Shown piece after piece: positions 1-31,541 of a stretch of DNA of 32,000 nucleotides; position 1 is the stretch's first letter, and each line of letters opens with the position of its first letter. The stretch comes from Verrucomicrobiota bacterium. GTDB taxonomy: Bacteria > Verrucomicrobiota > Verrucomicrobiia > Chthoniobacterales > UBA6821. The translations under genes and the position numbers were made by a program. Below the pieces are notes generated by a model. The model did not search any database. It was not told the DNA's origin and saw only the letters and a program-made list of their open reading frames with translations. The stretch lies in assembly GCA_008932965.1 (NCBI GenBank), contig WBXG01000007.1, positions 1 through 32,000 of the forward strand. Reading direction: 5' to 3'.

Positions 1-1
1 G

Positions 2-2182: not shown

Positions 2183-2207
2183 AAAAAAGAGAACTGCATA
2201 GAAAAAA

Positions 2208-3700: not shown

Positions 3701-3714
3701 ATTCAGAATAGATT

Positions 3715-4476
3715 TTATTTTTGATAAATATCATGAGCGACATAGCGATGTTCTAGCTCACTTGAAAATTCTGCAGCAAAATTATCACAAGAGACAATCA
3801 TCGATCGAACGGTGTTGACTAAGAAATTATAACCAAACATTGCTGGAATAGCTACAAGAAGGCCTGTCACCGTAGTAATCAAGGCACCAGAAACTCCAGG
3901 GGCCATTGCAGCAAGGTTCGCTGTTCCAGCAGCAGCAATACCACCAAAAGCATCCATAACTCCCCATACAGTTCCTAAGAGACCCACAAAAGGAGCTCCA
4001 CTCACTGCTGTTGAAAGAATAATCATTTGTGATTCTAGTTCTAATGCGGATTCACCCACGGCACGTTCCATTGCTACTGTTACAGAACGCATGTGGGAAG
4101 GACTCATACGGGGTGCCATCTGAATGCGCGCTTGAAATGTTTCATCTACTTCAGTCGATCCAAGGAGTTGAAAACAGAGTTCCCTACATCCTGCTTGATA
4201 GATTTGATAAAGCGGAGAACCTTCAAAAGTTAACTCTTGTTCAAAAATTTTTAGCGGTTGTCGATCACGACGGAAAAGCTCCATAAATTCAGCTGATTGC
4301 TTTTTCGCAAAGTTGAGAACTCGAATCTTAGTAAGCATGACCGACCAGCTAAAAATTGATCCTACGAAAAGGACGAGCAAAACTAGTTTTCCTTCAAAGG
4401 TCGATTCAAGGAAAGCATAGACAATACCGCTTGCCACAAGAGGATTCGGAAATTGAAGTAAGGAAAAACAGTTCAC
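3715..4476 (-). CDS. MotA/TolQ/ExbB-family proton channel
   Basis: The conserved C-terminal block SGAPFVGLLGTVWGVMDAFGGIA....NLAAMAPGVSGALITTVTGLLVAIPAMFGYNFL is present, with three predicted TM segments. Confidence 0.85.
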   Translation of the reverse strand: MNCFSLLQFPNPLVASGIVYAFLESTFEGKLVLLVLFVGSIFSWSVMLTKIRVLNFAKKQSAEFMELFRRDRQPLKIFEQELTFEGSPLYQIYQAGCRELCFQLLGSTEVDETFQARIQMAPRMSPSHMRSVTVAMERAVGESALELESQMIILSTAVSGAPFVGLLGTVWGVMDAFGGIAAAGTANLAAMAPGVSGALITTVTGLLVAIPAMFGYNFLVNTVRSMIVSCDNFAAEFSSELEHRYVAHDIYQK

Positions 4477-4608
4477 GGCATTATAAAAAAATCTAAAGGT
4501 CCTTGAAAAATAAAGCGTTAAGGGGAATGGGTAAAGAGTATTTCAATGATCAAGAACATTTGGTTGACCCATCGTTCTAAAAAAAATCTATTATTGAAAT
4601 AAGACAAA

Positions 4609-6696: not shown

Positions 6697-6798
6697 AAAA
6701 ACTCATTTCTTCTTCCATGAGAGCACAACAAAAAGAAGGGCATTTTCCCTTTTGCCAGAGCGCACCCAACACCATTGCTGTGCTCATCATAGGATTTA

Positions 6799-7098
6799 TT
6801 AGAGACATGAGGCTTCTTCCGTAAAGCCCACATCACCACGAATTGACTCTAGTTGACGAAGCACACGTTTCTTAGAGTGAGGACGATTGCGGATACGGCT
6901 CAAACAACTAGCCATTACAGGAACAACAATGAGTGCACCAGTTACTAGTAGAAATAGAGAGGTACGATGGCGTGCTCGGCAGCTCATTTTATCAGCAATA
7001 AGAAGTCCGACACCACACCCTACAGCTGCTTGAGTAATAGCAATTGTTCCACTCACAGGAAGGTTTTCTGAAAAATGGGAAAGAGAAAGTTGAGACAT
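6799..7098 (-). CDS. Small hypothetical membrane protein (2 predicted TM helices)
   Basis: I trimmed the ORF to the internal ATG at 7098 (MSQLSLSHF...) so it does not overlap the upstream gene. The hydrophobic stretches are GTIAITQAAVGCGVGLLIA and SLFLLVTGALIVVPVMASCL. I recognise no homolog. Confidence 0.4.
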   Translation of the reverse strand: MSQLSLSHFSENLPVSGTIAITQAAVGCGVGLLIADKMSCRARHRTSLFLLVTGALIVVPVMASCLSRIRNRPHSKKRVLRQLESIRGDVGFTEEASCL

Positions 7099-7159
7099 AA
7101 TTGGTAATAATACCTTATTTTTTTCTGAGCTCAACTGATAACTGCAGTAACTCCATGTC

Positions 7160-9340
7160 CTATGCATAATGCGAGCTAGAATTTTTTTTCTTGAAATAAA
7201 AATCATGTATCCAACAAATGATTCGCTGGATAAGGAATATCCCAGCACGTTCCAATTCAGATTTTTGCTGCCACTGATAAGCTCGCACTGGAATTGTTTC
7301 TTCTATGAGTTTTTTCCAAAATTTTAGAGTTGCTTCTTGAGTAAAAGCTTGTCCCGATCGGTGGCCATTTTGAACAAGCATAGCACGCAAACTTGGGTTT
7401 TCTTGAAGTTGTTTGAGTTGTTTAAAAACTTCTTTAAGTGATGTAGCCACGAGATAATCTATCTCAGGATTCCCATCAGCAGCATAAGCAGAATCGGATC
7501 CTCCAATAAAGGGAACTCCTGCTAACCAAGCATTATAGAGCTTTGTAGCAGGCTTATTCATATGCAAAGAGCGAGAGAAGCTGCGAATAGCAATCACACA
7601 GTCAACATCAGTATAATTATTCCACTCATGATATCCTCGTATTTGAAAATGAAGTCCAAGCTCTTCATATAGCCTGCGATGCCATTTTTGAGAACGAAGC
7701 TCCGGGGCAAGGTTTTGTATTTCCCCAAAGAAGCAGACATTTTCAAAGCGTGTTCCTCGAGTTGGATCACGTGGTTTTAGAAAAGGTTGAGGCCAGTGAG
7801 GAACATAAATGGAATTTGGAAGATAACGGGTATAATTTCTATTTTCCACTAAATGCAAATCCACACTAGGATGCGGTGTTTTATCAGCAAGAATATCGAC
7901 TAGAAATAAATGTGGATTTATAGATTTTCGTCTGAGTAACGGGTTTAAAAGCTTGCTCATCGTAATACAAATTCCAGTATTTTTTTCAAAAGGAAACTCG
8001 GTGGAAAGAGTAGAGTTGACTCCAATTTTCTTAAGCAAACTCCATGTTTGATAAATCCAACATGTAATTGTAGGGCTTTTGATTGGTTGATTTAATGCCA
8101 TTGGGTCTCCTTCTTTCCATTTTTCTCCCCAATCATCAGCAGAAAGAAAATATTCCATGATATGAAATGAAATCTTATCAAGAAACTTGATGGGAATCTG
8201 TTTCTCCATTTTTTTCTGGAAATAGTTGGTATAATACCGAAGAAAAAAAGTAGATAAGGAAGGGACCTTTGCATGAATGCTTGCACACGTTGCAAATAAG
8301 ATGGAGGCACGTTTTAAAGCGTTCGCTGATGCTTTCCAGTACCAAGAAAGGAGTGGATGTTCCGGCTTTTTTTCTTGAGCCTCTAAAGAATAAAAAGTGG
8401 CATCTATACTATTTTCGAGGGAAAATGCTGCCTTTCTCCAATATTCTGCTAACCGCTTATCTATTGTTAAAGCCTCACTTGCAGATGTGCGGTAGAAAAT
8501 AATTTTTTTATACACCTTTACCTGAGGAGGTAACTGATTATCTTCAAATTCTAATTTCTCTGCTTTGCAGGTCAGTTTCTTCCAGAGGTCATCGACAGCA
8601 TTCAAAGCTGCTAAAGCAGCTAGTGAATACTCAATAGCCTGATCTTCGTTGCCGATTTGAGTGGCCATTGCGGCTTCGATCCGTAACGCTAGAGCATTCT
8701 GATTTAATTCGAGAAGCTCATTCCAGAGGTGTTTATAGGGTGCTATTTTCTCTGGTGAAATGGATGCAGTATGAATATGGATATTGGCAAGATGAGCTGC
8801 CGCATATGCTGCTTTTACCCAACGATGGGTTAACACTATATTCAAAAAAGCATCATGGTTGTTAAGCGCTTGTGCTTTTTTAAATAAGGAAACTGCCTTG
8901 ATAGCATAACGAGAGGCTTCAGGAAGAGTCGACTCATAGTGGATTGCTGCCTGCGATACTTCTTGTATTTCTTGATCAAAATCTTTTGAGGCTTGTGCCT
9001 GCGCAAAAGCTAACCAATAACGGTACGCCGAGCCTGCTTCCCTATTTTCATTCCTATGGAAGGCCCAATAGGAGATTTCTGATTTTTGAAGCTTGTGATC
9101 CAAATAGTAATTGCCTTCTTGGTTCCAATAGGTCAAAAACGCAATCGCATCAATACTATGGGTTCGTTGAGGTTTGAGTAGCGCAGTTGCAGTTCTTTGT
9201 TGATCTACGAATGCGGCCTCATCGCTTGCAAGCCTCCAATATGCAGCAAGTCTCTCGTTTCCGAAAGCAGAAGCCCTGAGAGCTTGCTCACGATAGAGAG
9301 CAATTTCATCTCTTGCTTCTCTCTGAATTGAAAAATCCAT
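7160..9340 (-). CDS. Hypothetical two-domain protein: N-terminal alpha-helical repeat region (~390 aa) plus a C-terminal GT-B-like putative glycosyltransferase domain
   Basis: The N-terminal part carries recurring xYW(R/K)xA helical motifs (AAYWRLAS, YRYWLAFA, AEYWRKAA, SWYWKASA). The C-terminal ~340 aa is clearly paralogous to the next gene (CWIYQTW, FLVDI.AD..PHP...LHLV.NR, PHW.QP.L.PRDP.RG, NLAPELRS, KPATKLYNAWLAGVPFIGG.DSAYAADG). Confidence 0.6.
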   Translation of the reverse strand: MDFSIQREARDEIALYREQALRASAFGNERLAAYWRLASDEAAFVDQQRTATALLKPQRTHSIDAIAFLTYWNQEGNYYLDHKLQKSEISYWAFHRNENREAGSAYRYWLAFAQAQASKDFDQEIQEVSQAAIHYESTLPEASRYAIKAVSLFKKAQALNNHDAFLNIVLTHRWVKAAYAAAHLANIHIHTASISPEKIAPYKHLWNELLELNQNALALRIEAAMATQIGNEDQAIEYSLAALAALNAVDDLWKKLTCKAEKLEFEDNQLPPQVKVYKKIIFYRTSASEALTIDKRLAEYWRKAAFSLENSIDATFYSLEAQEKKPEHPLLSWYWKASANALKRASILFATCASIHAKVPSLSTFFLRYYTNYFQKKMEKQIPIKFLDKISFHIMEYFLSADDWGEKWKEGDPMALNQPIKSPTITCWIYQTWSLLKKIGVNSTLSTEFPFEKNTGICITMSKLLNPLLRRKSINPHLFLVDILADKTPHPSVDLHLVENRNYTRYLPNSIYVPHWPQPFLKPRDPTRGTRFENVCFFGEIQNLAPELRSQKWHRRLYEELGLHFQIRGYHEWNNYTDVDCVIAIRSFSRSLHMNKPATKLYNAWLAGVPFIGGSDSAYAADGNPEIDYLVATSLKEVFKQLKQLQENPSLRAMLVQNGHRSGQAFTQEATLKFWKKLIEETIPVRAYQWQQKSELERAGIFLIQRIICWIHDFYFKKKNSSSHYA

Positions 9341-9362
9341 AAAATTCTTTTTTCAAAAAAAC

Positions 9363-10376
9363 CTACCGTGTTACACGATCGAAATAACAAGAAAAGTGTT
9401 GCATGAGGTGCAAACAGGAATGTTCCAATGAGGATCGTTGCTTCCACTTGAGAGCTTCTGCAGGAAGCGTTGTTTGAACTAATTTCTTCCAACGATCGAG
9501 CGTTGCTTCCCTTGTATAGGAAACCACTGATTCCGATCCCTTCTGGACTAATTTCCAACGCATTACTGGATCTTCCTTGAGTTTTTTTAAATATTGAAAA
9601 ACTTTTTCAGCAGAGGTTCCTACAAGATAATCTTCTCCAGGATGACCATCAGCAGCATAGGCAGAATCGATTCCTCCAATGAAGGGAACACCAGCAAGCC
9701 AGGCATTATAAAGTTTGGTTGCTGGTTTATGAAGGTGCCTTGAGCCAGAAAAGTCACGAATTGCAATTACTCCATCGACATCGCTGTAATCATGCCAACG
9801 TCGTGCTTCTCTGATTTCTAGCAAAATACCAAGTTCTCTATGAAGTTGTTCTTGCCATGCTGCAGATCGTAGCTCCGGTGCAAGATTGCTACTGTCACCA
9901 AAAAAAGAGATTTTTTCAAAAAGAGAGCCACGTGCTGGGTCACGTGGAATCAGATGAGGTTGTGTCCAATGTGGCATAAAAAGGGAGCGCGGTAATTGTC
10001 TAGCATGAGCTCTGTTTTGAACAAGATGAAGATGCGCTGCAGGATGGGGCAACCCATCAGCAACAATATCGACAAGAAAGTAATTGTGAGAAATCCACTT
10101 TTTACCATTTTTTTTAAACTCCTCTTTGAAACAAGATACTATAGATGGAAAAGAGCTACTCATAGCGATGATAATACCCCCTTCATGAGGGAGGCTACCG
10201 AGAAGTGAACATGGAATCTTTTCCTGGATGAGCAAAGCCCATGTTTGATAGATCCAGCATTGAGCTGTGGCCCCTTTCCCTTTTTCTTCGAGTGGAATAA
10301 TCTGATTTTTTTCTAAGGCTTCTATCCAGAATTGGTTTGGAAAATGTTCTTTGGGCAAGATAAATGAGATAGGCAT
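9363..10376 (-). CDS. Hypothetical GT-B-like putative glycosyltransferase, stand-alone paralog of the C-terminal domain of 7160..9340
   Basis: By eye it has more than 50% identity to the C-terminal domain of the neighbouring 726-aa protein. HKPATKLYNAWLAGVPFIGGIDSAYAADG resembles the nucleotide-sugar-binding half of GT-B enzymes. It lies next to GT4 and acetyltransferase genes. Confidence 0.6.
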   Translation of the reverse strand: MPISFILPKEHFPNQFWIEALEKNQIIPLEEKGKGATAQCWIYQTWALLIQEKIPCSLLGSLPHEGGIIIAMSSSFPSIVSCFKEEFKKNGKKWISHNYFLVDIVADGLPHPAAHLHLVQNRAHARQLPRSLFMPHWTQPHLIPRDPARGSLFEKISFFGDSSNLAPELRSAAWQEQLHRELGILLEIREARRWHDYSDVDGVIAIRDFSGSRHLHKPATKLYNAWLAGVPFIGGIDSAYAADGHPGEDYLVGTSAEKVFQYLKKLKEDPVMRWKLVQKGSESVVSYTREATLDRWKKLVQTTLPAEALKWKQRSSLEHSCLHLMQHFSCYFDRVTR

Positions 10377-10397
10377 AAAAAAAGTGAGTGTGATGGG

Positions 10398-10450
10398 CTA
10401 GCCCGCATATTTCATACCGATCGTAAGGAATAGCAGGTGCAAGTTGAACT
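10398..10450. repeat. Solo or truncated terminus of the TIR element family
   Basis: CTAGCCCGCATATTTCATACCGATCGT matches the family terminus. The rest has diverged. It lies 22 nt upstream of the start codon at 10376. Confidence 0.55.
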
Positions 10451-10579
10451 CCATTTTTCAGTTTCATCCATCAATAGAAAGTCCTGGTTACAAAAACATC
10501 GATTTTTAACCTGAATACTCTTTACCCTGTACCTACCTCTCTCTATTTTTAATCAATCTTTTTTATTGCCGTTATTCCT

Positions 10580-11056
10580 GTGAATATTTTTTTCCAAGAC
10601 TGGTCTTACAATCGTGGAAATCTACGAAGTCAGAGTGTTCTTCTTTTATTTCGCATAGCACATTGCTTTCACCGACTCCCTCCTACCTCACGCTGGATCG
10701 GTTATCCCTATTTTCTCTTATACGAGCTACTCGTTGTTTGGATCTTAGGGATTGAACTCAGTTATAAAGCAACCATTGGCCCTGGACTGCGGCTCTTTCA
10801 CGGAGTTGCTACCGTGATTCATGAATCAGTAGTAATCGGTAAAAATTGCACTCTTCGGCATTCCACAACAATAGGAATGAGACATGAGACAGAGGCTGTT
10901 CCCACTCTTGGTGATCATGTTGATATTGGATGTCAAAGCGTTATTATTGGACCTATTCACATTGGGAATGCAGTCGTTATTGGTGCTGGTTCCGTAGTTC
11001 TCCATGATATCCCAGATCATAGTGTGGTAGCTGGAAACCCTGCTCGTATTTTATGA
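10580..11056 (+). CDS. Hexapeptide-repeat O-acetyltransferase (serine acetyltransferase / WcaB-like)
   Basis: Left-handed beta-helix repeats IGPGLRLFHGVATVIHESVVIGKNCTLRHSTTIG...LGDHVDIGCQSVIIGPIHIGNAVVIGAGSVVLHDIPDHSVVAGNPARIL. GTG start; the stop overlaps the next gene's ATG. Confidence 0.8.
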   Translation: MNIFFQDWSYNRGNLRSQSVLLLFRIAHCFHRLPPTSRWIGYPYFLLYELLVVWILGIELSYKATIGPGLRLFHGVATVIHESVVIGKNCTLRHSTTIGMRHETEAVPTLGDHVDIGCQSVIIGPIHIGNAVVIGAGSVVLHDIPDHSVVAGNPARIL

Positions 11057-12144
11057 AATTTCTTTTCTTCTCGGGGCATGCGCATCTAGCACTTGACCCA
11101 AATGCAGGTGAAGCCTCTGGAGGTGCAGAGTTGCAAGTAGCTTTGCTTTCAAAAGAACTTGTACAACGAGGTCATGACACAACCATCATCGCTACAGATA
11201 CAGGTCAGGAAGATGCTGTTTTTTGGGAAGGGATTAAAGTGTGCGTCGCACGTAGATTTGATAGCAGCTCCTTTTGGAAAAGCGCGTTAGCAATCCCATC
11301 GGTTTTGCGCATTATTGTTGAAGAAAAACCTGATGTGGTTGTGGTTTATGGGTGGACAGCATGGCTCTATCTCTTGGCTCAGTGGAGTAAAGTATGTCGT
11401 TATCGGCTTGTTTATGTCTGTGCTCTCGATTCAGAAATTGAAGGTACATTCTCCTACACTCATCGTTTTTGGGGATGGCTTTTTAAACGAGGAATGAGAC
11501 TCTGCCATGTACGTTTTGGAATCACAGAGCATCAAAAACAGCTCTTCCATCAACAAGGGATGAGCTGTTTTTTAACACGCCTGCTTTTACAACAAGCTCC
11601 AGCAGTCACCTCTTCTATCATCGAAAAACCGATCGATCTTCTTTGGGTAGCCCGTTGTAATCAAGTAAAGCAGCCACTTCAATTTTTAGAACTTGCCAAA
11701 AGATTTCCTCACGTACGCTGTCAGATGATTTGTTCGAATCAAGATCAAGAACTTTGGAAGGAAGTGAAGGACCAAGTTCAACATTTAGATAACATCGAGT
11801 TTCTCGAAGTTGTTCCCTACCGTGATATTCAACTCTATTTTAATCGAGCTAAGATTTTTGTGAATACCTCACTTGAAGAAGGGGTCCCTAACACCTTTAT
11901 TCATGCAGCGCTAGGACATACGGCTATTGCTTCACTACGTGTGGACCCTGATCAGATGTTTGATCACTTTGAAGCAGGTTTTTGTGCACAAGATAATAGG
12001 GGATATTTTTTTGAAAGGATTCAAAAGTTACTTCATCAGCCAGATCTTTTATCTCACGCACAATCGGAAGCGGCTCGTTTTGTGAGCACTTGGCACAATA
12101 ATAAAAAAAATATGGATAGCTTTCTTCAAGGAGTAGAGCAATGA
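11053..12144 (+). CDS. Glycosyltransferase family 4-like
   Basis: GGAELQVALLSKELVQRGHD N-terminal GT4 signature and C-terminal VNTSLEEGVPNTFIHAALG (an EX7E-like region). It is translationally coupled to its neighbours (ATGA overlaps). Confidence 0.75.
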   Translation: MKFLFFSGHAHLALDPNAGEASGGAELQVALLSKELVQRGHDTTIIATDTGQEDAVFWEGIKVCVARRFDSSSFWKSALAIPSVLRIIVEEKPDVVVVYGWTAWLYLLAQWSKVCRYRLVYVCALDSEIEGTFSYTHRFWGWLFKRGMRLCHVRFGITEHQKQLFHQQGMSCFLTRLLLQQAPAVTSSIIEKPIDLLWVARCNQVKQPLQFLELAKRFPHVRCQMICSNQDQELWKEVKDQVQHLDNIEFLEVVPYRDIQLYFNRAKIFVNTSLEEGVPNTFIHAALGHTAIASLRVDPDQMFDHFEAGFCAQDNRGYFFERIQKLLHQPDLLSHAQSEAARFVSTWHNNKKNMDSFLQGVEQ

Positions 12145-13280
12145 AGCGAGTATTGCATGTCATCGATCATCTTCAATTGGGTGGAGCTCAATCTTTATTG
12201 TTAGATTTAGTAACCTTAATGGAAAAATCAGAATGGCACTGTGAAGTTGCTTCCATGCATGGACGTGGTCTTTTTGCAGAACTCTTAGAAAAAAAAGGAA
12301 TCTCAGTCCATTCCCTCTCTCCCTCCTTATGGCCACCGTGTTATCTTGCTGCATTTGCAAGCCTCCAATCTCAATTTGATATTCTTCATTTTCATCTTTC
12401 GGGTTCCAATTGGATTGCCAAACCCATGGCAGCTCTCCTTGGAAATCAACCCCGGATATCACATGATCATGGGAGTGATGATTTTCGTTTTCGTGGTAGG
12501 GGATTTGTTTTAATGGATGCCATCATGCATCGCTTTTCAACACACACGATTGCCGTCACACCGGAGGTAAAACAATTTTTAACCCATTATGAAGCTCTTA
12601 CTGCGGAGTCAGTCACAGCGATCTCAAACGGAATCAACGTGGAAGAATTCCGTCCTTTTACTTCAGAAGAAAAAAAAGAAGCCCGTCTGTTTTTTGATTT
12701 GCCCTCGGAAGCATTTGTGGTGGGCACGGTAGGCCGTCTTGCGCCTGAAAAAAACCAAACACTTTTCTTGAAAGCCGCTAAAATTGCTCTCGAGCAAGGA
12801 TTGAAAGCTACTTTTCTAATTGCAGGGACAGGCCCCGAAGAAGCAGCTTTAAAAAAATGTGCTGCACAACTTGGCATCGAACATAGTGTTCGCTTTTTAG
12901 GACAGATTAAAGATCGCGTCCAGCTCTACCGTTCATTAGATCTATTTGTACTAACCTCACGCTTTGAAGGTTTGCCAATGGTACTTTTAGAGGCCATGGC
13001 TTCAGGAATACCAGTTGTAAGCACCGATCTTGAGGGAATTCATCATGCACTTGAGGGAGGACGACATGGTCTCTTGATTCCCTCGGAGGATGAGATAGCT
13101 TTAAGTGACTGCTTGCTGCACTCCCATGAACGAATCCAACAAGAATCTTTGCGAAGTGCACGTCTTAAAGTAGAATCAGATTTTAGCGCTCAGAAAGCTG
13201 CTAAGAAGTTAGGGGATTTATATCAGTCACTTCTGAGCCCGAATATTTCACACCGATTACCTATGGAAGCCGGAAAGTAA
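12141..13280 (+). CDS. Glycosyltransferase family 4 (GT1/GT4 RfaB-like)
   Basis: LQLGGAQSLLLDLV, VGRLAPEKNQ and SRFEGLPMVLLEAMASGIPVVSTD motifs. The last 15 codons and the stop (from 13234) are encoded by a repeat element. Confidence 0.9.
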   Translation: MKRVLHVIDHLQLGGAQSLLLDLVTLMEKSEWHCEVASMHGRGLFAELLEKKGISVHSLSPSLWPPCYLAAFASLQSQFDILHFHLSGSNWIAKPMAALLGNQPRISHDHGSDDFRFRGRGFVLMDAIMHRFSTHTIAVTPEVKQFLTHYEALTAESVTAISNGINVEEFRPFTSEEKKEARLFFDLPSEAFVVGTVGRLAPEKNQTLFLKAAKIALEQGLKATFLIAGTGPEEAALKKCAAQLGIEHSVRFLGQIKDRVQLYRSLDLFVLTSRFEGLPMVLLEAMASGIPVVSTDLEGIHHALEGGRHGLLIPSEDEIALSDCLLHSHERIQQESLRSARLKVESDFSAQKAAKKLGDLYQSLLSPNISHRLPMEAGK

Positions 13281-13511
13281 GTGTGGACGCTTTATTGAGC
13301 TCGAAGTCTTCCTTGGGCGGTAGGTATTCATACAGCCCTGCATCAAAATGCTTGCCTGCGTTGACTCACTCGCTCCCACTCGTTTCCCCCTTTTAGGGCT
13401 TCCTAAGAGGCTCCTAAGAGACAGTCTCCCCCGCGGTCTCCAGACCACCGGTGGTGCCCTATCAGTCTTCGCGACCTCCTCTTTACGATCAGTATGAAAT
13501 ATGCGGGCTGG
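13234..13511 (+). mobile_element. TIR element, long form (278 bp), with a nested ~96-nt hairpin module at 13361..13456
   Basis: The left end is TGAGCCCGAATATTTCACACCGATTACC and the right end is CGATCAGTATGAAATATGCGGGCTGG. The core TACAGCCCTGCATCAAAATGCTTGCCTGC is followed by a TTGACTCACTCGCTCCC... module. Confidence 0.85.
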
Positions 13512-13616
13512 GAGAATTTAATCTTCATTTTCTTTTTTTTACTGTTTCTTTTTTAGTAAAAGGACCCATGCTCAAGTTTGTTTGTTTTGGTCTTTTAATG
13601 TTTAATTTTTTGAAAA

Positions 13617-16250: not shown

Positions 16251-16345
16251 TTAACCCGAATATTTCATACTGATCGTGACGAGGAGGTCGCGAAGCCAGA
16301 TGTGTGATACTGTAGACTCTTATTTTGAGTTGGGCCGTCTTATCA
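16251..16345 (-). repeat. Truncated TIR element: one arm plus a diverged core, reverse orientation, other end missing
   Basis: TTAACCCGAATATTTCATACTGATCGTGACGAGGAGGTCGCGAAGCC is the reverse complement of the right-arm consensus. TATTTTGAGTTGGGCCGT matches the reversed CATCAAAATG core. Confidence 0.75.
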
Positions 16346-16444: not shown

Positions 16445-17611
16445 ATGACTAAACGAGATTATTATGAAATATTGGGGGTCTCTCGTACTGCCCAGCAAGA
16501 AGAAATTAAGCGCGCCTATCGTAAGCTAGCTGTCAAATATCATCCTGACAAAAATCCTGGAGATGCATCTTCTGAAGCCTCTTTTAAAGAGCTTGCTGAG
16601 GCCTATGATATTATTAGCGATGCCGATAAAAGAGCTGCTTATGATCGCTATGGCCATGCTGCTTTTCAAGGTGCCGGAGGTCGTGGTGCAGCTGGAGGTT
16701 TTCATGATCCTTTTGATCTCTTTCGTGAGATGTTTGCAGGTCAAGGAGGTAAGGCAGGAATGGGAGGAATGGGAGGAGGAATTTTTGAGCAATTTTTTCA
16801 GGGTGGGGCAGAGGCTTCCTCGCGTGATGGAAAACAACGAGGGGCAGATCTGCGTTATGATCTTCAAATTACCCTAGAAGAGGCGTTCTCTGGCTGTGAG
16901 AAAGAAATAGAAATCCAGAAACTTGATGCTTGTCAGACCTGTGATGGCTCTGGAGCTGCTCCAGGGGCTAAAACGGCATCATGCTCTCTATGCCAAGGGA
17001 GAGGTCAGGTAGCAATGTCTCGTGGATTTTTTCAGGTAGTTCAAACGTGTCCTCAATGTCATGGAGCTGGTCAAGTTATCGATAAGCCATGCCAAAACTG
17101 TCGAGGAGAGGGGTGTGAAGAGAGGGTCTCACGTATTACTCTTAAAATTCCTGCAGGCATCGATGAAGGGGCACGACTTCGCTCTTCGGGATCTGGTGAA
17201 GCTGGGATAAGAGGTGGTGGGAAAGGGGATCTTTATGTCATTATTCATCTCAAAAAACATTCTGTTTTTGAACGAGAGGGGATGAATCTTCATTGTCAGA
17301 TCCCTATTCCATTTTCGATAGCTGCCTTGGGGGGGGAAGTCAAGGTTCCAACGCTGTGTGGGCTTGTAGATTTAAAAATTGTTTCAGGAACACAGAGTGG
17401 TTCTACCTTTTCTATTCGTGGTTCAGGAATGCCTTCACTGCAAAGCCCACGAAAAGGAGATCTCTACGTACGGGTTGAAGTCGAAGTTCCAACAAAGCTC
17501 AATGCAGAACAGCGTCAGGCTCTAGAAAAATTTTCTCAACTTTGTGGGGAGGAAAATACCCCCTTACATCGCAGTTTTACAGAACGGCTTAAAGACTTTT
17601 TAAGTAATTAA
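16445..17611 (+). CDS. dnaJ: Molecular chaperone DnaJ (type I)
   Basis: J-domain DYYEILGV...[16 protein letters not shown], a G/F-rich region and four CxxCxGxG motifs ([32 protein letters not shown]). Confidence 0.97.
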
Positions 17612-17623
17612 TTTTAGCTCGGA

Positions 17624-17660
17624 TATTTCATCCTGATCTATTATGAAGCCTTCTCGTTTC
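17624..17660 (+). repeat. Solo left terminus of the TIR element family
   Basis: TTAGCTCGGATATTTCATCCTGATCTATTATGAAGCC aligns to the left arm of the copy at 28118 (TTAACCCGAATATTTCATCCTGATCTACTACGGAAGAC). Confidence 0.65.
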
Positions 17661-18483: not shown

Positions 18484-19716
18484 GTGTTTTCTCTTAATTC
18501 CAATTACCTTAAACTTAAAGCCGGTTATCTTTTTCCCGAAATAGCACGACGCGTTAAGGAGTTCCTTGAGGCTCATCCTGAGGCTGCGACTGATTTGATT
18601 CGTTGTGGTATTGGAGATGTTACAGAGCCTCTTCCTCGTGCTGTATGTGATGCGATGCATTCAGCTGTCGATGAAATGGGAATACGAGAAACGTTTCGTG
18701 GATATGGACCGGAGCAAGGATACGATTTCTTGAGGAAGCTTATTGCAAAGCATGATTATCAATTTCGAGGGGTAACAGTAGCTGAGGACGAAATTTTTAT
18801 CTCTGATGGCTCCAAATGTGATGGAGCGAACATCCTGGATATTTTAGGCAAGAATAATCGTATTGCTGTGATGGATCCTGTTTATCCCGTCTATGTCGAT
18901 ACAAACGTCATGGCGGGACGTACTGGTAATATGCAGGATGATGGCTCTTACGAAGGGATCACTTACCTTGAATGTAATCATGAAAATGGTTTTGTTCCTT
19001 CATTACCTCAAGAAAAAGTTGATATCATTTATCTCTGCTATCCAAATAATCCGACTGGTGCGGTCGCCTCTCGTGAAGCACTTACTCGTTGGGTGGAGTA
19101 TGCACGGAGTCACCATTCGTTAATTCTTTTTGATGCAGCTTATGAGGCATTTATTCAGGACCCCGATATACCTCACTCCATTTATGAAATTCCTGGAGCC
19201 AGGGAATGTGCTCTTGAGTTGCGAAGCTTTTCCAAAAAAGGAGGGTTTACGGGTGTGCGTTGTGCTTTTACTGTTGTCCCTAAGGAGCTCCTGGCTAGGA
19301 CTGCCCAAGGAGGACAAGCCTCTTTACATCCATTGTGGAATCGTCGCATGACAACCGCTTTTAATGGGGTTAGTTATATTACACAACGTGGAGCAGCGGC
19401 ACTTTATTCAGAAGAGGGTCAGGCTCAGGTGCAGTCTCTTATTACTCATTATATGGGAAATGCTGCTCTCTTACGTGAGGCAGTAATAGCAGCAGGGCTT
19501 ACTGTTTATGGAGGAACAAATGCTCCTTATCTTTGGGTTCAATCTCCTCTAGGAGAAAAAAGTTGGGAAACTTTTGATCGAATGCTTCATGACCATCATA
19601 TTGTGGTCACTCCTGGAAGCGGCTTTGGAAGCGCCGGTGAAGGCTATTTCCGTATTTCCGCATTCAATAGTCGGGATAATGTGCTTGAGGTAGCAAAGCG
19701 ACTTTCTCTTCGTTAA
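18484..19716 (+). CDS. dapL: LL-diaminopimelate aminotransferase
   Basis: DapL-type blocks [109 protein letters not shown] start. The stop TAA lies inside the TTAA of a repeat terminus. Confidence 0.9.
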
Positions 19717-19772
19717 ACTGGATTTTCATACCAGTGACCTAAGGAGACCGGAAAGCCAGCGTGGATACTGTT
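19713..19772 (+). repeat. Solo, degenerate left arm of the TIR element family
   Basis: TTAAACTGGATTTTCATACCAGTGACCTAAGGAGACCGGAAAGCCAGCGTGGATACTG aligns with TTAACCCGGATATTTCATTCCGATCACCTGCGGAAGCCGGGAAGCTAGGGTTGATGCTG (copy at 25500). Confidence 0.6.
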
Positions 19773-19794
19773 CAATAATCACAATTATTTCTAC

Positions 19795-20484
19795 ATGCTC
19801 ATTTCTGAGATTTTTTATTCATTACAAGGAGAAGGTATGCTCATTGGGATGCCCTCTGTTTTTGTGAGAACAGCAGGATGTAATCTTCGCTGCCGTTGGT
19901 GTGATACACCTTATGCTTCCTGGAAACCAGAAGGAGAGGAGCTCTCTTTACATGAAATTGTAGAACGTGTTTCAGAATATAAATGTCACCATGTGGTGTT
20001 GACTGGAGGTGAGCCTATGATCGCCAAAGGATTACCAGATCTTGCAGCACAACTCCGAGCAAAAGGGCATCACATTACTATTGAAACAGCAGGAACTGTG
20101 TTGCCCCATGGAATTGCCTGTGATCTTGCTTCCCTCAGTCCGAAGTTGAAGAATTCCACTCCTGATGAACATAGTGCTGGTGCATGGAGTGGGCGTCACG
20201 AAGAGCGTCGCTATGCTCCAGATATGATAAAGGCTTGGCTCAAATCAATGGAGTGCCAATTGAAATTTGTGGTCTCCTCTCAAGAAGATTTGGAGGAGAT
20301 AGAAAATATCCTTTCAGAGATTGGAGCAGTGGAAAGAGATCATCTTTTTTTGATGCCAGAGGGAATAGATCCAATAATGTTAAGAGAGCGTTCGAAGTGG
20401 CTTGCAGAAATATGTCGAGAGCGTCAGTACCGCTTTGCACCTCGTTTGCAGATCGAACTTTACGGTAATACGAGAGGGACATGA
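19795..20484 (+). CDS. queE: 7-carboxy-7-deazaguanine synthase (radical SAM)
   Basis: EIFYSLQGEG...G.PSVFVRTAGCNLRCRWCDTPYAS (CX3CX2C cluster) and VVLTGGEP. The length is typical of QueE. Confidence 0.9.
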   Translation: MLISEIFYSLQGEGMLIGMPSVFVRTAGCNLRCRWCDTPYASWKPEGEELSLHEIVERVSEYKCHHVVLTGGEPMIAKGLPDLAAQLRAKGHHITIETAGTVLPHGIACDLASLSPKLKNSTPDEHSAGAWSGRHEERRYAPDMIKAWLKSMECQLKFVVSSQEDLEEIENILSEIGAVERDHLFLMPEGIDPIMLRERSKWLAEICRERQYRFAPRLQIELYGNTRGT

Positions 20485-22640: not shown

Positions 22641-22650
22641 TAAGGCTCAT

Positions 22651-22689
22651 TGCGCTATCAAGGTGATCAGTAGGAAAGATCCGGTTTAA
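22651..22689 (+). repeat. Solo degenerate right terminus of the TIR element family
   Basis: GGTGATCAGTAGGAAAGATCCGGTTTAA versus the right end TGGTGATCAGAATGAAATATGCGGGTTAA of the copy at 23911..23975. About 22/25 matches over the terminal 25 nt. Confidence 0.55.
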
Positions 22690-23910: not shown

Positions 23911-23975
23911 TTAACCCGGATATTTTATACTGATCGCGGCCTTCGCTGGTGATCAGAATGAAATATGCGGGTTAA
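23911..23975 (+). mobile_element. Miniature (65 bp) deletion derivative of the TIR element, essentially the two arms only
   Basis: TTAACCCGGATATTTTATACTGATCGCGG-CCTTCGC-TGGTGATCAGAATGAAATATGCGGGTTAA. TTAA is present at both ends and the sequence folds as a near-perfect hairpin. Confidence 0.85.
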
Positions 23976-24005: not shown

Positions 24006-24503
24006 ATGATGATCCGTCGTAACACACTTCTTCTTTTGCTAGTTCTCTTTCTTTTTGGAAATTCCGGATGTTCCAATCTCACCCCCACAGAAAATGGATT
24101 GCTCGCTGCAGGAGCTGTAGGAGCCGCTACTGGAGTGGCTTTAGGGACCACGGTGAGCCCCTCTATTTCTATACCTGTAGCTATTGGCTCGGCTCTCCTT
24201 GCTGGAGGAGGTGCTTATCTTTATTCCAAAAATCGAGCAACCATTGACCAACGCCGGATTGCGGAAGCACGCGCTCGTCTTTACTACGCTAAGCTCAATG
24301 AGTCAGAACAAGAGAATACTAATCGATATTTAGCAGTGAATGCCCCGAACACTGCTCAAACACAAGGACAAGCTGTCATGCTTTATGATACTCAAACTAA
24401 GACGATGCCTAACGATGTTTATGATATGAAAAAAACACCCTCTGTTGGAGCCTCTACATCGATTGGAAATAACAGAGCCACCTACATTGGCTCTGGGAAC
24501 TAG
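24006..24503 (+). CDS. Lipoprotein with a glycine-zipper region
   Basis: Signal peptide plus lipobox LFLFGNSG|C, then a Gly/Ala-rich AAGAVGAATGVALG...AIGSALLAGGGAYLY segment. Confidence 0.7.
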   Translation: MMIRRNTLLLLLVLFLFGNSGCSNLTPTENGLLAAGAVGAATGVALGTTVSPSISIPVAIGSALLAGGGAYLYSKNRATIDQRRIAEARARLYYAKLNESEQENTNRYLAVNAPNTAQTQGQAVMLYDTQTKTMPNDVYDMKKTPSVGASTSIGNNRATYIGSGN

Positions 24504-24545
24504 AGAGACCTCAATGTTGAACGTAGTAATGATGAGCTCTCCACA

Positions 24546-24587
24546 AGCCGTAGTAGTAGTAGATTTAGTATGAAATATTTGGGCTAG
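24546..24587 (-). repeat. Solo left-arm terminus (reverse orientation), abutting the next copy and sharing its CTAG
   Basis: AGCCGTAGTAGTAGTAGATTTAGTATGAAATATTTGGGCTAG duplicates the end of the adjacent copy (CTTCCGTAGTAGATTGGTATGAAATATTTGGGCTAG at 24732..24767). Confidence 0.7.
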
Positions 24588-24767
24588 CCCAAATATTTCA
24601 TACTGATCGTGACGAGGAAGCTGCGAAGGGTGATGGGGCAAGGCAGTCGAGCATTTTGATGCTGGGCTGTATGAACACATACCGCCCAAGTCAAAATGGG
24701 AGTCTAACGCAGCATCCATCTGACTTCCCAGCTTCCGTAGTAGATTGGTATGAAATATTTGGGCTAG
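24584..24767 (-). mobile_element. TIR element, standard form (184 bp), reverse orientation, CTAG at both ends
   Basis: Its reverse complement aligns end to end with the copies at 28118 and 25500, including the core TACAGCCCAGCATCAAAATGCTCGACTGCC. Confidence 0.9.
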
Positions 24768-24771
24768 GATC

Positions 24772-25260
24772 TCACTGGCTTTCGGCTTCAATCAACGATT
24801 GTTGTATTAAAGAAAAAATTTCTATTTGAAGAAGTGCTTTTTCCTGAGCTGAGCTAAATGAGGCATGGTCGCATAGGTGGTGACCTACTTCAGTAATTTG
24901 GTGTTCAGCAGCTAGCGATAAGCGCACAATACTCATCATGCGCAACCAGGCATCTCGGTGAGCTAAGGGAATCTGAAAAGAACGAAGCTGCTTAGAAGGA
25001 TTTTCATATTCCAGTGCAGCTAAATCAGTGAGAACTTTCTCATGACATGAGGAAAAGAGCGCTTGAAGTTCGGGGACAATATATTCTTTCCAATCTTGAG
25101 AAAAGAGGGGGTCTTGTTTGGTCAGTTTTTGAAAAAGATATTCATTCACGATCTGTGAACTCAGTTCTTTTTGCTGTAATGGTTGGGTTAAAAGTGTCAC
25201 AAGAGAAAAATCGATTTCTTGAAAAAGAAGGTCACCATTAGGTTGAAGAGAACAATTCAT
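24772..25260 (-). CDS. Hypothetical protein (162 aa)
   Basis: Clean ORF with AT-rich codon usage like the neighbouring genes. I recognise no motif. It lies downstream of ybeY-clpS on the same strand. Confidence 0.5.
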   Translation of the reverse strand: MNCSLQPNGDLLFQEIDFSLVTLLTQPLQQKELSSQIVNEYLFQKLTKQDPLFSQDWKEYIVPELQALFSSCHEKVLTDLAALEYENPSKQLRSFQIPLAHRDAWLRMMSIVRLSLAAEHQITEVGHHLCDHASFSSAQEKALLQIEIFSLIQQSLIEAESQ

Positions 25261-25318
25261 ACTATTTTTTTAACAGAGCTTGATGAAAGGTGTGGAGATT
25301 GATGGAGGTTATTTCAAC

Positions 25319-25486
25319 ATGAAACTGCCTAACAGTAATCATAAAAAATCTCTTCTTTGGGGAATTGATGTAGGTGGAACCAAAATAGAAGGAGTGATTA
25401 TTGATTCGTCTCAACAAAACCGAGCTCTCCATCGGCTTCGTGTTCCAACAGAATCTCCTCAAGGACCAGAACATATCATGAGGTAG
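25319..25486 (+). pseudogene. ROK-family sugar kinase, N-terminal ~55 codons only (remnant)
   Basis: LLWGIDVGGTKIEGVIIDSSQQ....LRVPTE matches the ASKHA/ROK phosphate-1 motif (GIDxGGTK) and the following RxPTP-like strand. The ORF stops 14 nt before the element at 25500, and the remaining ~250 codons are absent. Confidence 0.5.
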
Positions 25487-25499
25487 TTACAGCTTCTTG

Positions 25500-25705
25500 T
25501 TAACCCGGATATTTCATTCCGATCACCTGCGGAAGCCGGGAAGCTAGGGTTGATGCTGCGTTGGTCTCGAATTGTGATTCGGGAGGTAGGGACTCTACAG
25601 CCCTGCATCAAAATGCTCGCCTGCGTTGACTCGCTCGCTCCCACGCGGTCTCCCATCAGCCTTCGCAGCCTCCTCATCACGATCAGTATGAAATATCCAG
25701 GTTAA
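25500..25705 (+). mobile_element. TIR element (206 bp), reference copy, carrying a 27-nt remnant of the nested module (25626..25652)
   Basis: TTAACCCGGATATTTCATTCCGATC...GATCAGTATGAAATATCCAGGTTAA. Internal hairpin CTCGAAT-tgtg-ATTCGGG (25566..25583). Core CTACAGCCCTGCATCAAAATGCTCGCCTGC. Confidence 0.9.
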
Positions 25706-25992
25706 AAAATTTGCTCCAATGCTGCTGTAAGCAAATATCCCTGGAGTTTTTCTACGTAGAGTTCTCCTTCTTCACGAGAGCCGGACCAAAGAGTAGAGCG
25801 TCCTTGTACGTGTACTTCGCGCATTTTTTTTTCTGCAATTTCTTTGCTAAATCCAAAGATCTTTTGAAATACCATAGTCACATAACTCATTAGATTAATA
25901 GGATCATCATGGACAACGACCTGCCAGACTGGCTCCAGTTCTAGTTCCATGACTGTTTCAGGATTTTCTAAAATGAGTGGTTCCGTTGTCAT
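25702..25992 (-). CDS. clpS: ATP-dependent Clp protease adaptor ClpS
   Basis: VWQVVVHDDPINLMSYVTMVFQKIFGFS.E.A...M.EVH..G......GSREE.E.YV..L. The stop TAA lies inside the element's terminal TTAA (25702..25705). The start overlaps the ybeY stop. Confidence 0.92.
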   Translation of the reverse strand: MTTEPLILENPETVMELELEPVWQVVVHDDPINLMSYVTMVFQKIFGFSKEIAEKKMREVHVQGRSTLWSGSREEGELYVEKLQGYLLTAALEQIF

Positions 25993-27244: not shown

Positions 27245-27319
27245 AGTTATCCCCATCCGTATTGAAAAGTAAAACTAGTTTGGCTGCCTTGCATAGATTT
27301 GAACTATGACAAGCAGATT
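27245..27319. repeat. Direct repeat copy 1 (75 bp): 36 nt of tRNA-Gln trailer plus tRNA-Gln nt 37-76
   Basis: 74/75 identical to 27419..27493, with the single mismatch at 27279/27453. It contains the T-arm, the 3' acceptor strand and CCA of tRNA-Gln but no 5' half. Confidence 0.95.
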
Positions 27320-27418
27320 GACTCGCTCGCTCTCGCTCGTCTCGCCCCTTTGGGGTTGCTTTATCAAAGCAATCTACCCCGCGGCTTTGCAGCCGCCGGT
27401 GTTCAGTCTGAATCTGCT
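27320..27418 (+). repeat. 99-nt insert between the tRNA-Gln direct repeats, a copy of the nested hairpin module
   Basis: (TT)GACTCGCTCGCTCTCGCTCGTCTCGCCCCTTTGGGG-TTGCTTTatcAAAGCAA-TCTACCCC-GCGGCTttgcAGCCGC-CGGTG aligns with modules at 13361, 28505 (reverse), 28618 and 30005. It ends with TCTGAATCTGCT, an inverted 12-nt copy of the tRNA anticodon loop and 3' stem. Confidence 0.85.
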
Positions 27419-27493
27419 AGTTATCCCCATCCGTATTGAAAAGTAAAACTAGCTTGGCTGCCTTGCATAGATTTGAACTATGACAAGCAGATT
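27419..27493. repeat. Direct repeat copy 2 (75 bp), part of the intact tRNA-Gln locus
   Basis: See copy 1. The repeat boundary at 27493/27494 falls between the anticodon's third base and nucleotide 37. Confidence 0.95.
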
Positions 27494-27528
27494 CAGAGTC
27501 TGCTGTGCTACCGTTACACCACAAGGCA
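27455..27528 (-). tRNA. tRNA-Gln (anticodon CTG), 74 nt with encoded CCA
   Basis: Hand-folded cloverleaf: acceptor TGCCTTG/CAAGGCA (U1:A72, as in bacterial tRNA-Gln), D arm GTGT-AACGGTA-GCAC, anticodon arm GCAGA-CTCTGAA-TCTGC, 4-nt variable loop, T arm CATAG-TTCAAAT-CTATG, discriminator G, CCA. Confidence 0.88.
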
Positions 27529-28117: not shown

Positions 28118-28302
28118 TTAACCCGAATATTTCATCCTGATCTACTACGGAAGACGGGAAGCAAGGGTGGATGCTGCGTTAGGCTCCCATTTTGACTTGG
28201 ACAGTACCTACTCATACAGTCCTGCATCAAAATACGTGTCTGCCTTGCCCCATCAGCCTTCGCAGCTTCCTCGTCACGACTAGTATGAAATATTCGGTTT
28301 AA
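28118..28302 (+). mobile_element. TIR element, standard form (185 bp), TTAA at both ends
   Basis: TTAACCCGAATATTTCATCCTGATC...GACTAGTATGAAATATTCGGTTTAA. Core TACAGTCCTGCATCAAAATACGTGTCTGCC. No nested module. Confidence 0.9.
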
Positions 28303-28411: not shown

Positions 28412-28765
28412 TTAACCCGCCTACTTCATACCGATTCTGCTGCAGCTTGCGAACACCTGATAGATACTGCGTCAGTCTCGAATTGCTCCTCGGGCAGTAT
28501 GACTACCGGCAGCGGGGAAGCTGCGGGAGAGATTGTCGCAAAGCGACAACCCGAAGGGCGAGACGAGCGAGAGCGAGCGAGTCAAACTACAGCCGTCGTC
28601 GCAATCCATCACCTTCGTTGACTCGCTCGCTCCCGTTCGTCTCGCCCTTTCAGGGCTGCCCCCTAAAGCCAGGGCAGTCTCCACCACGGTCTCCCGACCG
28701 CAGGTGGTTTCTGTATCAGGATTCGAGGCGCCTTGCGACGAACCAGTATGAAATATGCGGGTTAA
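28412..28765 (+). mobile_element. TIR element, composite form (354 bp), with two nested hairpin modules in inverted orientation (28505..28585 reverse, 28618..28707 forward)
   Basis: TTAACCCGCCTACTTCATACCGATTC...AACCAGTATGAAATATGCGGGTTAA. The left arm is nearly identical to the copy at 31368. Internal 30-nt inverted repeat GGGCGAGACGAGCGAGAGCGAGCGAGTCAA / TTGACTCGCTCGCTCCCGTTCGTCTCGCCC with a 32-nt spacer. Confidence 0.9.
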
Positions 28766-29943: not shown

Positions 29944-29989
29944 GGTGGATAAGCTCGAAATCTTCCTCAAGTAGTGGGTGCTCACACAG

Positions 29990-30154
29990 CCACCATCGCC
30001 TTCTTTGACTCGCGCGATCCAGCTCGTTTCTTTTTTAAGGGCTTACTAACCTAACAACTGAGTTAGTAATCGCTCTGGTGGTCTTCCTGTCACGTCTGGT
30101 TTCTATACCAGGCCGCTTACCTTATAACATTTCAGTGTGAAATATCTGTGCTAG
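29990..30154 (+). repeat. Degenerate right portion of a composite TIR element (module plus right arm, no left arm)
   Basis: CCACCATCGCCTTCTTTGACTCGCGCG...TTTCTATACCAGG...CAGTGTGAAATATCTGTGCTAG parallels 28600..28765 of the composite copy. Contains the stem TTACTAAC/GTTAGTAA (30043..30069). Confidence 0.7.
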
Positions 30155-31215: not shown

Positions 31216-31367
31216 AAAAAGAGTATTTAGAAGTTTGGTAATTTTTAGCTACTTGGTCCAATGAGTTTGGAATATCCTAGCGAAGTAAGTATTTAAATTA
31301 GTAGCATTAGCGGAAGTGTACAATTTCAAAATTGGAAAAAAGGAAATAAGGGTCAGGCTAACCCGCC

Positions 31368-31541
31368 CATTTCATACCGATTCTGCTGCGGCTTGCGAAC
31401 ACCTGATGGATACTGCGTCAGCTTCGAATTGCTCCTCGGGCAGTAGGGACTCATACAGCCCTACATCAAAATGCTCGCCTGCCTCACCCCATCAGCCCCC
31501 GCGGCCTCCTCGTCACGATCAGTATGAAATATCCGGGTTAA
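31368..31541 (+). mobile_element. TIR element, standard form (174 bp)
   Basis: CTAACCCGCCCATTTCATACCGATTC...GATCAGTATGAAATATCCGGGTTAA. Stem GTAGGG/CCCTAC around CTCATACAG. Core CATCAAAATGCTCGCCTGCC. Confidence 0.9.

Follow-up and report, generated by a model that had tools for sequence, protein, structure and literature searches.

Small inverted-repeat elements of probable IS1380-family descent at stop codons in a Chthoniobacterales genome

Why do several genes of one bacterial genome end exactly where a repeat begins? The question is raised by a stretch of 32,000 nucleotides (nt) of contig WBXG01000007.1 (positions 1 to 32,000, forward strand; hereafter the window), in which the dapL open reading frame (ORF, 18484–19716) stops with a TAA (19714–19716) that lies inside the TTAA (19713–19716) flanking a decayed left-end fragment of a dispersed repeat (~60 bp, 19713–19772). 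We propose that the repeats are miniature inverted-repeat transposable elements, hereafter MITEs, derived from the IS1380 family, that they duplicate a 4-bp YTAR target (Y, pyrimidine; R, purine) upon insertion, and that insertions at stop codons are harmless and have been kept preferentially; we give this reading as a whole a probability of roughly 0.8. Its observed basis is the anatomy of the repeats, the 4-bp duplication, ends held in common with IS1380-family elements and an excess of insertions at stops, which would reflect selection rather than a preference at the moment of insertion.

The repeats and their flanking tetranucleotide

The window belongs to a Verrucomicrobia genome of the Chthoniobacterales/"Spartobacteria" group; its phosphofructokinase (pfk) is at most 74% identical to that of any species representative, and freshwater metagenomes hold contigs ~99% identical to the window. 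Genes were named with NCBIfam and Pfam, and include grpE, dnaJ, sod, dapL, queE, a heptosyltransferase gene, dac, pfk, clpS, ybeY, fbaB, ilvC and aroA, among others. The inverted repeat begins CCCGNATATTTCAT, and its end, also given as CCCGNATATTTCATACYGATC, is found at both ends of the element. With up to 3 mismatches allowed, the end motif CCCGGATATTTCATACTGATC matched 14 sites in the window versus 0 expected. Real ends, defined by a looser motif scan and inspection, number 22 at 15 loci: six full copies (13234–13511, 24584–24767, 25500–25705, 28118–28302, 28412–28765 and 31358–31541), one 65-bp mini-copy that consists of the two inverted repeats alone (23911–23975) and eight one-ended fragments. 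The fragment next to dapL is one of the eight; over ~62 nt it can be aligned to the ends of full copies, its repeat having lost 1 nt.

A canonical copy is a near-perfect long palindrome of 176–177 bp; longer copies, up to 354 bp, contain nested inserts. Coding capacity is nil, no copy encodes a transposase, and MITE sequence makes up ~6% of the window. YTAR stands immediately outside the terminal CCC at 20 of the 22 ends (binomial p ~1e-36, against a background of 1.2% of window positions). The copies are dispersed, being found as well in the sequences L001, L002, L196, L222 and L226 and in dozens of metagenome contigs. Thus, the window repeats are MITEs: small, non-coding, multicopy, bounded by inverted repeats and a target duplication, and sharing their ends with an autonomous element.

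The bacterial MITEs of the Correia (Neisseria), ERIC and RUP types are likewise small, non-coding, palindromic, intergenic and multicopy, are often co-transcribed with their neighbours and have short target duplications, TA in the case of Correia elements. The window family differs from them in its parent family and in its target, whose four base pairs contain a stop codon on both strands. An Rfam scan of the window returned a single match, the tRNA at 27458–27528, and the repeats are covered by no known RNA family. One apparent end (16457–16477; L001 3743–3763) was rejected as a false positive, since it consists of the dnaJ codons for the conserved DYYEILGV (GATTATTATGAAATATTGGGGGTC); such mimicry of a MITE end can mislead automated MITE finders.

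Is YTAR a duplicated target or the outermost part of the inverted repeat? Matching flanks had been noted in a preliminary description of this DNA, and they are present as described: TTAA/TTAA around the mini-copy (23911/23972), around 25500–25705 (25500/25702, 206 bp with flanks), around the canonical copy 28118–28302 (28118/28299, 177 bp plus TTAA on each side) and around 28412–28765 (28412/28762, a full copy with a nested internal insert), and CTAG/CTAG around the canonical copy 24584–24767 (24584/24764). The sixth pair, CTAA/TTAA, was also found, at 31358/31538 on the canonical copy 31358–31541 rather than at 31368 (a 10-nt slip); its flanks are one transition apart. That two-ended copies have matching flanks holds for most of them, but the earlier account had omitted the full copy 13234–13511, in which an insert is nested and a 12-nt tandem repeat varies and whose flanks, TGAG/CTGG, are decayed and not YTAR.

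The sister-species contig L196 is syntenic with the window (dapL 92% identical at the amino-acid (aa) level, ~85% nucleotide identity) and allowed filled and empty sites to be compared. The TTAA-element-TTAA at 28118–28302 corresponds to a single TTAA in L196 (...aaaataact TTAA gaaatagag...). Reciprocally, a CTAG-element-CTAG in L196 (19888–20072) corresponds to a single CTAG in the window, an unoccupied target beside the tRNA gene (27449–27452, with a duplicate of the site at 27275–27278). Copy 28412–28765 is also absent from L196, where the orthologous site has diverged (TTGGA) and its length fits one tetranucleotide. The spacer between pfk and hyp165, which holds the mini-copy, was not counted as an empty site in the L196 comparison: the junction is unclean and an extra 30 nt differs.

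We then considered a metagenome scan run with a pattern that excluded the flank. Over 100+ loci, 82 of 108 validated ends were flanked by YTAR (TTAA 36, CTAG 25, TTAG 12, CTAA 9). Flank logos contained no motif beyond YTAR, positions −12 to −5 being unconserved, and a frequent GGG before YTAR was rejected as a target motif, as it stems from abutting copies. Paired flanks comprised ~10 TTAA/TTAA and 7–10 CTAG/CTAG. Concordant non-palindromic pairs were direct repeats in 7 of 8 cases, both for MITEs (CTAA/CTAA in L196/L081, TTAG/TTAG in L125) and for autonomous copies (TTAG/TTAG in L198; CTAA/CTAA in L199, L201, L218 and L221); the lone inverted case is L157. Finally, copies that abut have one tetranucleotide in common (window 24584, L100, L110 and two cases in L222), as is expected if a newcomer inserts into the duplication that flanks a resident, an arrangement that would be impossible if YTAR belonged to the element.

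These observations support YTAR as a duplicated 4-bp target and not as part of the inverted repeat, in agreement with what had been suspected from the window. That YTAR instead forms the outermost part of the repeat and that nothing is duplicated upon insertion has next to no likelihood left: the palindromes TTAA and CTAG do read alike as direct or inverted repeats, and in the L157 copy each end, read in inverted-repeat orientation, shows CTAA, but empty sites keep exactly one tetranucleotide, which refutes the idea for practical purposes, abutting copies share one tetranucleotide and not two, seven of the eight non-palindromic pairs are direct, and the flank type varies inside element subtypes.

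A duplication of TA alone, as in the IS630/Tc1-mariner or IS711/IS427 types, with the inner R or Y belonging to the element and the outer Y or R to the target context, deserves closer attention. It fits 6–7 mismatched pairs (CTAA/TTAA three times, TTAG/CTAG twice, CTAG/CTAA, and CTAA/TTAG in L157), IS711 is reported to duplicate TA within YTAR (PMC2266754), and empty sites at palindromic targets cannot by themselves tell a 2-bp from a 4-bp duplication. However, flank positions 1 and 4 correlate between ends: the inner base on one side equals the outer base on the other in 25 of 27 YTAR/YTAR pairs. TTAA harbours nearly all 'A-type' ends and CTAG nearly all 'G-type' ends, as a 4-bp duplication predicts and independent targets do not, and the combinations TTAG...CTAA and CTAA...TTAG, expected at ~25% if TA alone were duplicated, are absent among MITEs. 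In addition, the seven copies with non-palindromic 4-bp direct repeats include five autonomous ones in which the repeat is perfect, one arm subtype is flanked by TTAA in the window but by CTAG in L196, and the associated transposase is of the IS1380 family, members of which make 4–5-bp repeats (5 bp for IS1247; PMC3281130). We therefore consider a TA-only duplication, which the preliminary description had also entertained, improbable.

The parent transposon

Which transposase could move such elements? In the metagenome contig L157, which carries the end motif, lies a complete element of 1581 bp between CCCGGATATTTCATAATGATC... and ...ATGAAATATTCGGG. Its 464-aa ORF matched PF13701 (E = 3.8e-163) and NF033539, the IS1380 family transposase model (E = 2.7e-119); a Pfam scan of this cognate transposase returned PF13701 and PF01609 only, and no piggyBac-type domain. 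A related 1588-bp element with ends CCCGAATATTTCATGAG / CCCGGATATTTCATAACG (L198–L207) occupies at least 5 places in one metagenome with an identical transposase. Its copies are flanked by perfect 4-bp YTAR direct repeats, other homologous elements behave alike, and a more distant relative with ends CCCAGAAATTTCAT is flanked by CTAG in every case. Homologues of the transposase are abundant (P0121–P0240, all with PF13701).

How closely do these elements resemble the MITEs? In the autonomous elements that share MITE ends (L157, L198–L202, L218 and L221), the ends agree with those of the MITEs without exception over their first 14 nt, and with the MITE 'A' arm at up to 22 of the first 25. Complete elements with MITE ends measure ~1.58 kb and have a single ORF, which encodes an IS1380-family transposase in every one found. 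Two other candidates were set aside: a 365-aa ORF beside an element in L081 and L196, which has no Pfam or NCBIfam match and a conserved position, and an IS1634-family transposase beside an end in L179, judged to belong to a neighbouring unrelated element. Judged by these shared ends, the window copies can be taken to be IS1380-family-derived MITEs in a Chthoniobacterales genome. That an IS1380 transposase mobilises them in trans is something that we infer, as the window contains no transposase gene.

The IS1380 family makes direct repeats of 4–5 bp and has ends that begin with CC; the window MITEs have CCCG ends and 4-bp repeats, and a CCC start is that of IS1380-family elements, as against GG or GA in the IS5 family. 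In this they resemble the known IS1380-family elements (IS1380, IS1247, ISEcp1, ISPme1), with which they share a cognate NF033539/PF13701 transposase and 4–5-bp direct repeats. They differ from them as 176-bp non-coding palindromic derivatives, and ISEcp1 and IS1247 make 5-bp repeats without the YTAR specificity of the parent clade of the window MITEs. Neither MITEs derived from IS1380 nor an IS1380 clade specific for YTAR turned up in the searchable literature.

The preliminary description had pointed instead to the IS5 group or to IS630/Tc1, an assignment that the IS1380-family transposases of the autonomous elements contradict. MITEs of the IS5 group would account for the target, since IS5 makes 4-bp YTAR duplications just as these MITEs do (PMC5009759), and the IS711/IS427 group shares the YTAR consensus as well, although IS711 duplicates TA only (PMC2266754). 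Both differ from the window family in transposase family and in ends. All complete elements with the MITE ends encode PF13701/NF033539 transposases, and no IS5-type transposase was found beside any end, so that descent from IS5 seems very improbable to us.

A second comparison is with the eukaryotic transposon piggyBac, which duplicates a 4-bp palindromic TTAA target and whose ends start 5'-CCC and finish GGG-3'. The MITEs also have CCC...GGG termini, and TTAA is the commonest of the YTAR flanks in the metagenome census (36 of 82), beside CTAG, TTAG and CTAA. They differ in a looser target, YTAR, with CTAG about as common as TTAA, in their bacterial host, and in a cognate transposase that matches PF13701 and not the piggyBac domain. 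IS1380 transposases have been used as a prokaryotic outgroup, or treated as distant relatives, of piggyBac (PMC10140906, PMC10813416).

Insertions at stop codons

Three genes of the window had been said to stop inside YTAR, and the coordinates are correct for all of them. Beside dapL, the right-hand TTAA (25702–25705) of copy 25500–25705 holds the clpS stop (25702–25704, minus strand), and a CTAG (30151–30154) holds the fbaB stop (TAG, 30151–30153, minus strand) at the end of a decayed copy (29986–30154) that takes up the spacer from fbaB to a beta-lactamase-like gene. A fourth case is ambiguous: the stop of hyp165 (24501–24503) sits in a CTAG (24500–24503) at the edge of an element cluster, just before the start of a right-end fragment (24504–24587) that abuts copy 24584–24767 and shares its left CTAG.

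Other copies lie close to stops. Copy 31358–31541 ends 9 nt from the ilvC stop; a right-end fragment (22645–22689, flank TTAA at 22686–22689) starts a few nt past the dac stop; and left-end fragments begin 2 nt past the dnaJ stop (17614–17655, flank TTAG) and 31 nt past the grpE stop (16251–16312, flank TTAA). The dnaJ-adjacent fragment has a further-decayed version in L196. A left-end fragment with a CTAG flank (10398–10460) lies instead 22 nt upstream of the start of a minus-strand gene (9363–10376). In two places an ORF runs into an element: aroA (908–2179) reads through the TTAG flank of a left-end fragment (2157–2207) and 20 nt into it, so that its last 7 codons are element sequence, and a glycosyltransferase ORF (12141–13280) ends 46 nt inside copy 13234–13511.

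Are stops hit more often than expected? For the window we removed the elements and used curated genes; elsewhere ORFs of 100 aa or more stood in for genes. The window has 7 stop-embedded YTAR sites, 3 of them occupied (4 if the ambiguous site at 24500 is counted), and its remaining intergenic YTAR sites comprise ~60 free and ~9 occupied. Within 10 nt of a stop lie 7 of 12 occupied sites against 4 of 60 free ones (p = 1.3e-4), 2 of the 7 depending on how fragments are delimited. At independent loci, a stop of an ORF outside the element falls in the flank of 6 of 26 listed two-ended copies (23 once three double-counted entries are removed), compared with 63 of 737 free non-coding YTAR sites (p = 0.024). 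Pooled, the stop lies in the flank at 9 of 35 insertions versus 66 of 797 free non-coding YTAR sites (odds ratio 3.8, p = 0.0025). Thus, the association with stop codons is real and of moderate size, ~4-fold; a niche at stops had been proposed beforehand, and the pooled excess and the native stops of relatives bear it out, although the effect is moderate.

Do the elements bring the stops with them? An in-frame TAA or TAG in the flank can only repeat a pre-existing stop. In L001, where dapL has no element, the stop is at the same codon position (TCG TAA G); L081–L083 and L196 carry a divergent, element-free allele in which the clpS stop is at the same position; and L226 (FbaB 91% identical) reads ATCGC-CTAG-GGCATTTT at the fbaB stop, an empty native site, where L222 has an element at the same CTAG as the window. 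Because relatives without the elements keep the same stops, we read the insertions as hits on native stops. In L001 the dnaJ and pfk stops were hit independently, the dnaJ stop lying within the TTAG of a copy of a different arm type. The CTAG next to the tRNA gene was also hit twice, in L196 and L222, in opposite orientations and by different subtypes.

How could such a pattern arise? An IS1380-family DDE transposase acting in trans would insert the element at YTAR, mostly at the palindromes TTAA and CTAG, and repair of the staggered cut would duplicate all four bases, hence the matching YTARs around each copy. A pyrimidine followed by a TAA or TAG stop makes a YTAR site, and the target has a stop codon on both strands. 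As the site would be rebuilt on both sides of the insert, the reading frame and the length of the protein would be unchanged. An insertion at a stop would moreover place the element in the 3' untranslated region, furthest from the promoter and the ribosome-binding site of the next gene. The ~4-fold excess at stops would then arise because such insertions persist preferentially in a compact genome, and the survival of harmless insertions is its likeliest cause.

Several observations weigh against this account: (i) no transposase gene was found in the window, in L196 or in ~21 kb of each same-species contig (L081–L087); (ii) among these ~99% identical strains (L081–L087), no copy shows presence/absence polymorphism over ~20 kb; (iii) ~10 MITE pairs differ by one transition between their flanks (e.g., CTAA/TTAA three times), and two autonomous copies are discordant (L157, CTAA/TTAG; L219, TTAA/TTAG); (iv) the strict overlap with stops in the window by itself (3/13 versus ~10% expected) is not significant; and (v) the excess at stops rests on 35 events, with ORFs as proxies for genes outside the window. 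For the discordant pairs we assume decay, recombination between copies or chimeric metagenome assembly, and L203 is a demonstrable assembly chimera. The L157 pair was likewise not accepted as evidence for a TA-only duplication or for YTAR as part of the repeat, being outweighed by the seven direct pairs and the L203 chimera.

Point (iv) brings up chance: a YTAR-specific element confined to short intergenic spacers would meet stops by coincidence. Indeed, 7 of the ~71 candidate non-coding YTAR sites of the window (10%) coincide with a stop, and of 13 intergenic insertions 3 fall on such a site, which is not significant alone, and the crude ORF proxies used outside the window may understate the null. 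The pooled comparison (p = 0.0025) and the proximity test in the window (p = 1.3e-4) both argue against coincidence, as do the repeated, independent hits on the same stops (dnaJ and pfk in L001; fbaB in the window and L222, empty in L226). On balance we regard chance as an unlikely explanation.

Alternatively, gene 3' ends could be favoured actively, either because the transposase prefers them (through terminator structure or transcription-coupled access) or because the hairpins are kept as terminators or stabilisers in 3' untranslated regions. The elements do fold strongly: copy 24584–24767 forms a hairpin of ~90 bp (−96 kcal/mol, z = −11 versus shuffled sequence) and copy 25500–25705 a long hairpin with z = −5.9 on the same comparison. 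A MAFFT/RNAalifold consensus of 17 aligned copies recovered the 20-bp terminal stem alone, and position 5 of the inverted repeat co-varies between ends (GC 9, AU 3, CG 2). The strand with the 'A/D' arm at its 5' side folds 7–25 kcal/mol better as RNA in 19 of 19 copies (window, L001, L002, L196 and metagenome loci), from which it follows that many positions between the arms are of the G.U type. This asymmetry, the stability of the hairpins, the strong near-stop excess in the window and the one CTAG hit twice independently all speak for a role of gene 3' ends. In contrast, flank logos contain no motif beyond YTAR, many copies lie upstream of genes as well, and the more stable RNA strand does not match the strand transcribed from the upstream neighbour gene (6 concordant, 9 opposite). 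An active preference or a retained 3'-end function therefore seems to us unlikely, and slightly more so than chance; we favour the preferential survival of harmless insertions.

Age, rearrangement and significance of the copies

Since all copies are fixed among the ~99% identical strains, the family looks old in the window species, with no visible activity at present, and these strains provided no empty sites. Several insertions distinguish sister species. Large differences among L081–L087 are only three: an assembly gap in a tandem repeat, a change in the number of a 174-bp repeat and a replaced 1.2-kb segment. The gap occurs at the 12-nt tandem repeat GCTTCCTTAGAG within a MITE (window 13403–13420; L081 4770–4940), whose copy number differs between strains and which breaks the L081 assembly (run of N). 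The 174-bp unit is tandemly duplicated in the window (27245–27493, beside the minus-strand tRNA at 27458–27528) and consists of a 75-nt direct repeat, including the 3' 36 nt of the tRNA gene, and of a 99-nt insert that starts GACTCGCTCGCTC. The unit is present three times in L082; L196 lacks the insert and has a single 75-nt copy. The arrangement resembles what an integration at the tRNA 3' end would leave behind, with a unit number that changes between strains.

The replaced segment (window 24499–25709, L081 16015–18373) is hypervariable. Other strains and L196 have 2.36 kb in place of the 1.2 kb, with the conserved 365-aa ORF that lacks Pfam and NCBIfam matches, a different MITE copy and a divergent DUF2017 allele, whereas the window version holds a truncated ROK-kinase-like N-terminus (~25325–25486) that ends at the MITE. 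Homology with the other strains is lost precisely at 24499, where hyp165 stops in a CTAG.

Larger rearrangements separate the window from the sister species. Compared with L196 1–5100, the window (2157–6713 and 6812–13616) has an inverted ppk-exbB-exbD-tonB block and an inserted glycosyltransferase cluster of ~6 kb, and MITE copies or fragments (2157–2207 and 13234–13511) lie at both breakpoints, which suggests recombination between MITE copies. A TonB-like gene in this region (2208–3257) contains a 12-nt periodic repeat of at least 10 units (2686–2889), presumably the proline/lysine-rich linker typical of TonB.

Conservation is uneven as well. The MITE fragment at 19713–19772 is 100% identical in L196, and the whole dapL–queE spacer with the first ~100 nt of queE (window 19707–19900, L196 11230–11420) is 99–100% identical, whereas the rest of L196 is ~85% identical to the window and other spacers 65–70%. 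Recent recombination could have produced this tract, or it could be a regulatory element upstream of queE that has so far escaped recognition; the spacer has no Rfam riboswitch match, and L083 and L087 have a 4-nt deletion in it (AGCC at 19754).

What lengthens some copies? A second repeat module, TTGACTCGCTCGCTC...CGTCTCGCCC..., is nested in several MITE copies, sometimes as an inverted pair, and also stands alone beside the tRNA (13361–13402, 25625–25650, 27318–27359, 28556–28659 and 30005–30046). The 'long' MITEs owe their length to this module, which may be a small unit in its own right, mobile or recombinogenic. Another copy, in L001 (11290–11400), contains a (CCCATTA)n array. L222, an 8-kb contig of a close relative, has 12 element ends in its positions 1–7300, among them head-to-tail arrays with a shared single tetranucleotide and a chimeric copy, flanked by CTAG/TTAA, in which both arms are of the 'D' type. 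Element density and recombination between copies can thus be much higher than in the window.

What do these elements mean for the genomes that carry them? The family is IS1380-derived and of a well-known kind, the bacterial MITEs, and does not overturn current understanding. For annotation, the MITEs define or abut many gene ends, extend the aroA and glycosyltransferase ORFs and occupy sister-species breakpoints, and in Chthoniobacterales genomes they will mislead gene callers and assemblers. In transposon biology, a clade of the IS1380 family with strict YTAR (TTAA/CTAG) targeting and derived MITEs offers a bacterial comparison for the TTAA specificity of piggyBac. A widespread bacterial clade of this kind, with its MITEs, may share with piggyBac a duplicated 4-bp, TA-centred palindromic target (TTAA/CTAG) and CCC...GGG termini, and we tentatively raise the possibility, doubtful as it is, that this target chemistry is ancestral to an IS1380/piggyBac superfamily. 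If that were true and the elements excised precisely like piggyBac, copies in stop codons would travel with gene 3' ends as passengers able to leave again completely and without a footprint. For genome evolution, a target that contains a stop codon, together with its duplication, would provide a harmless landing place for transposons in a compact genome.

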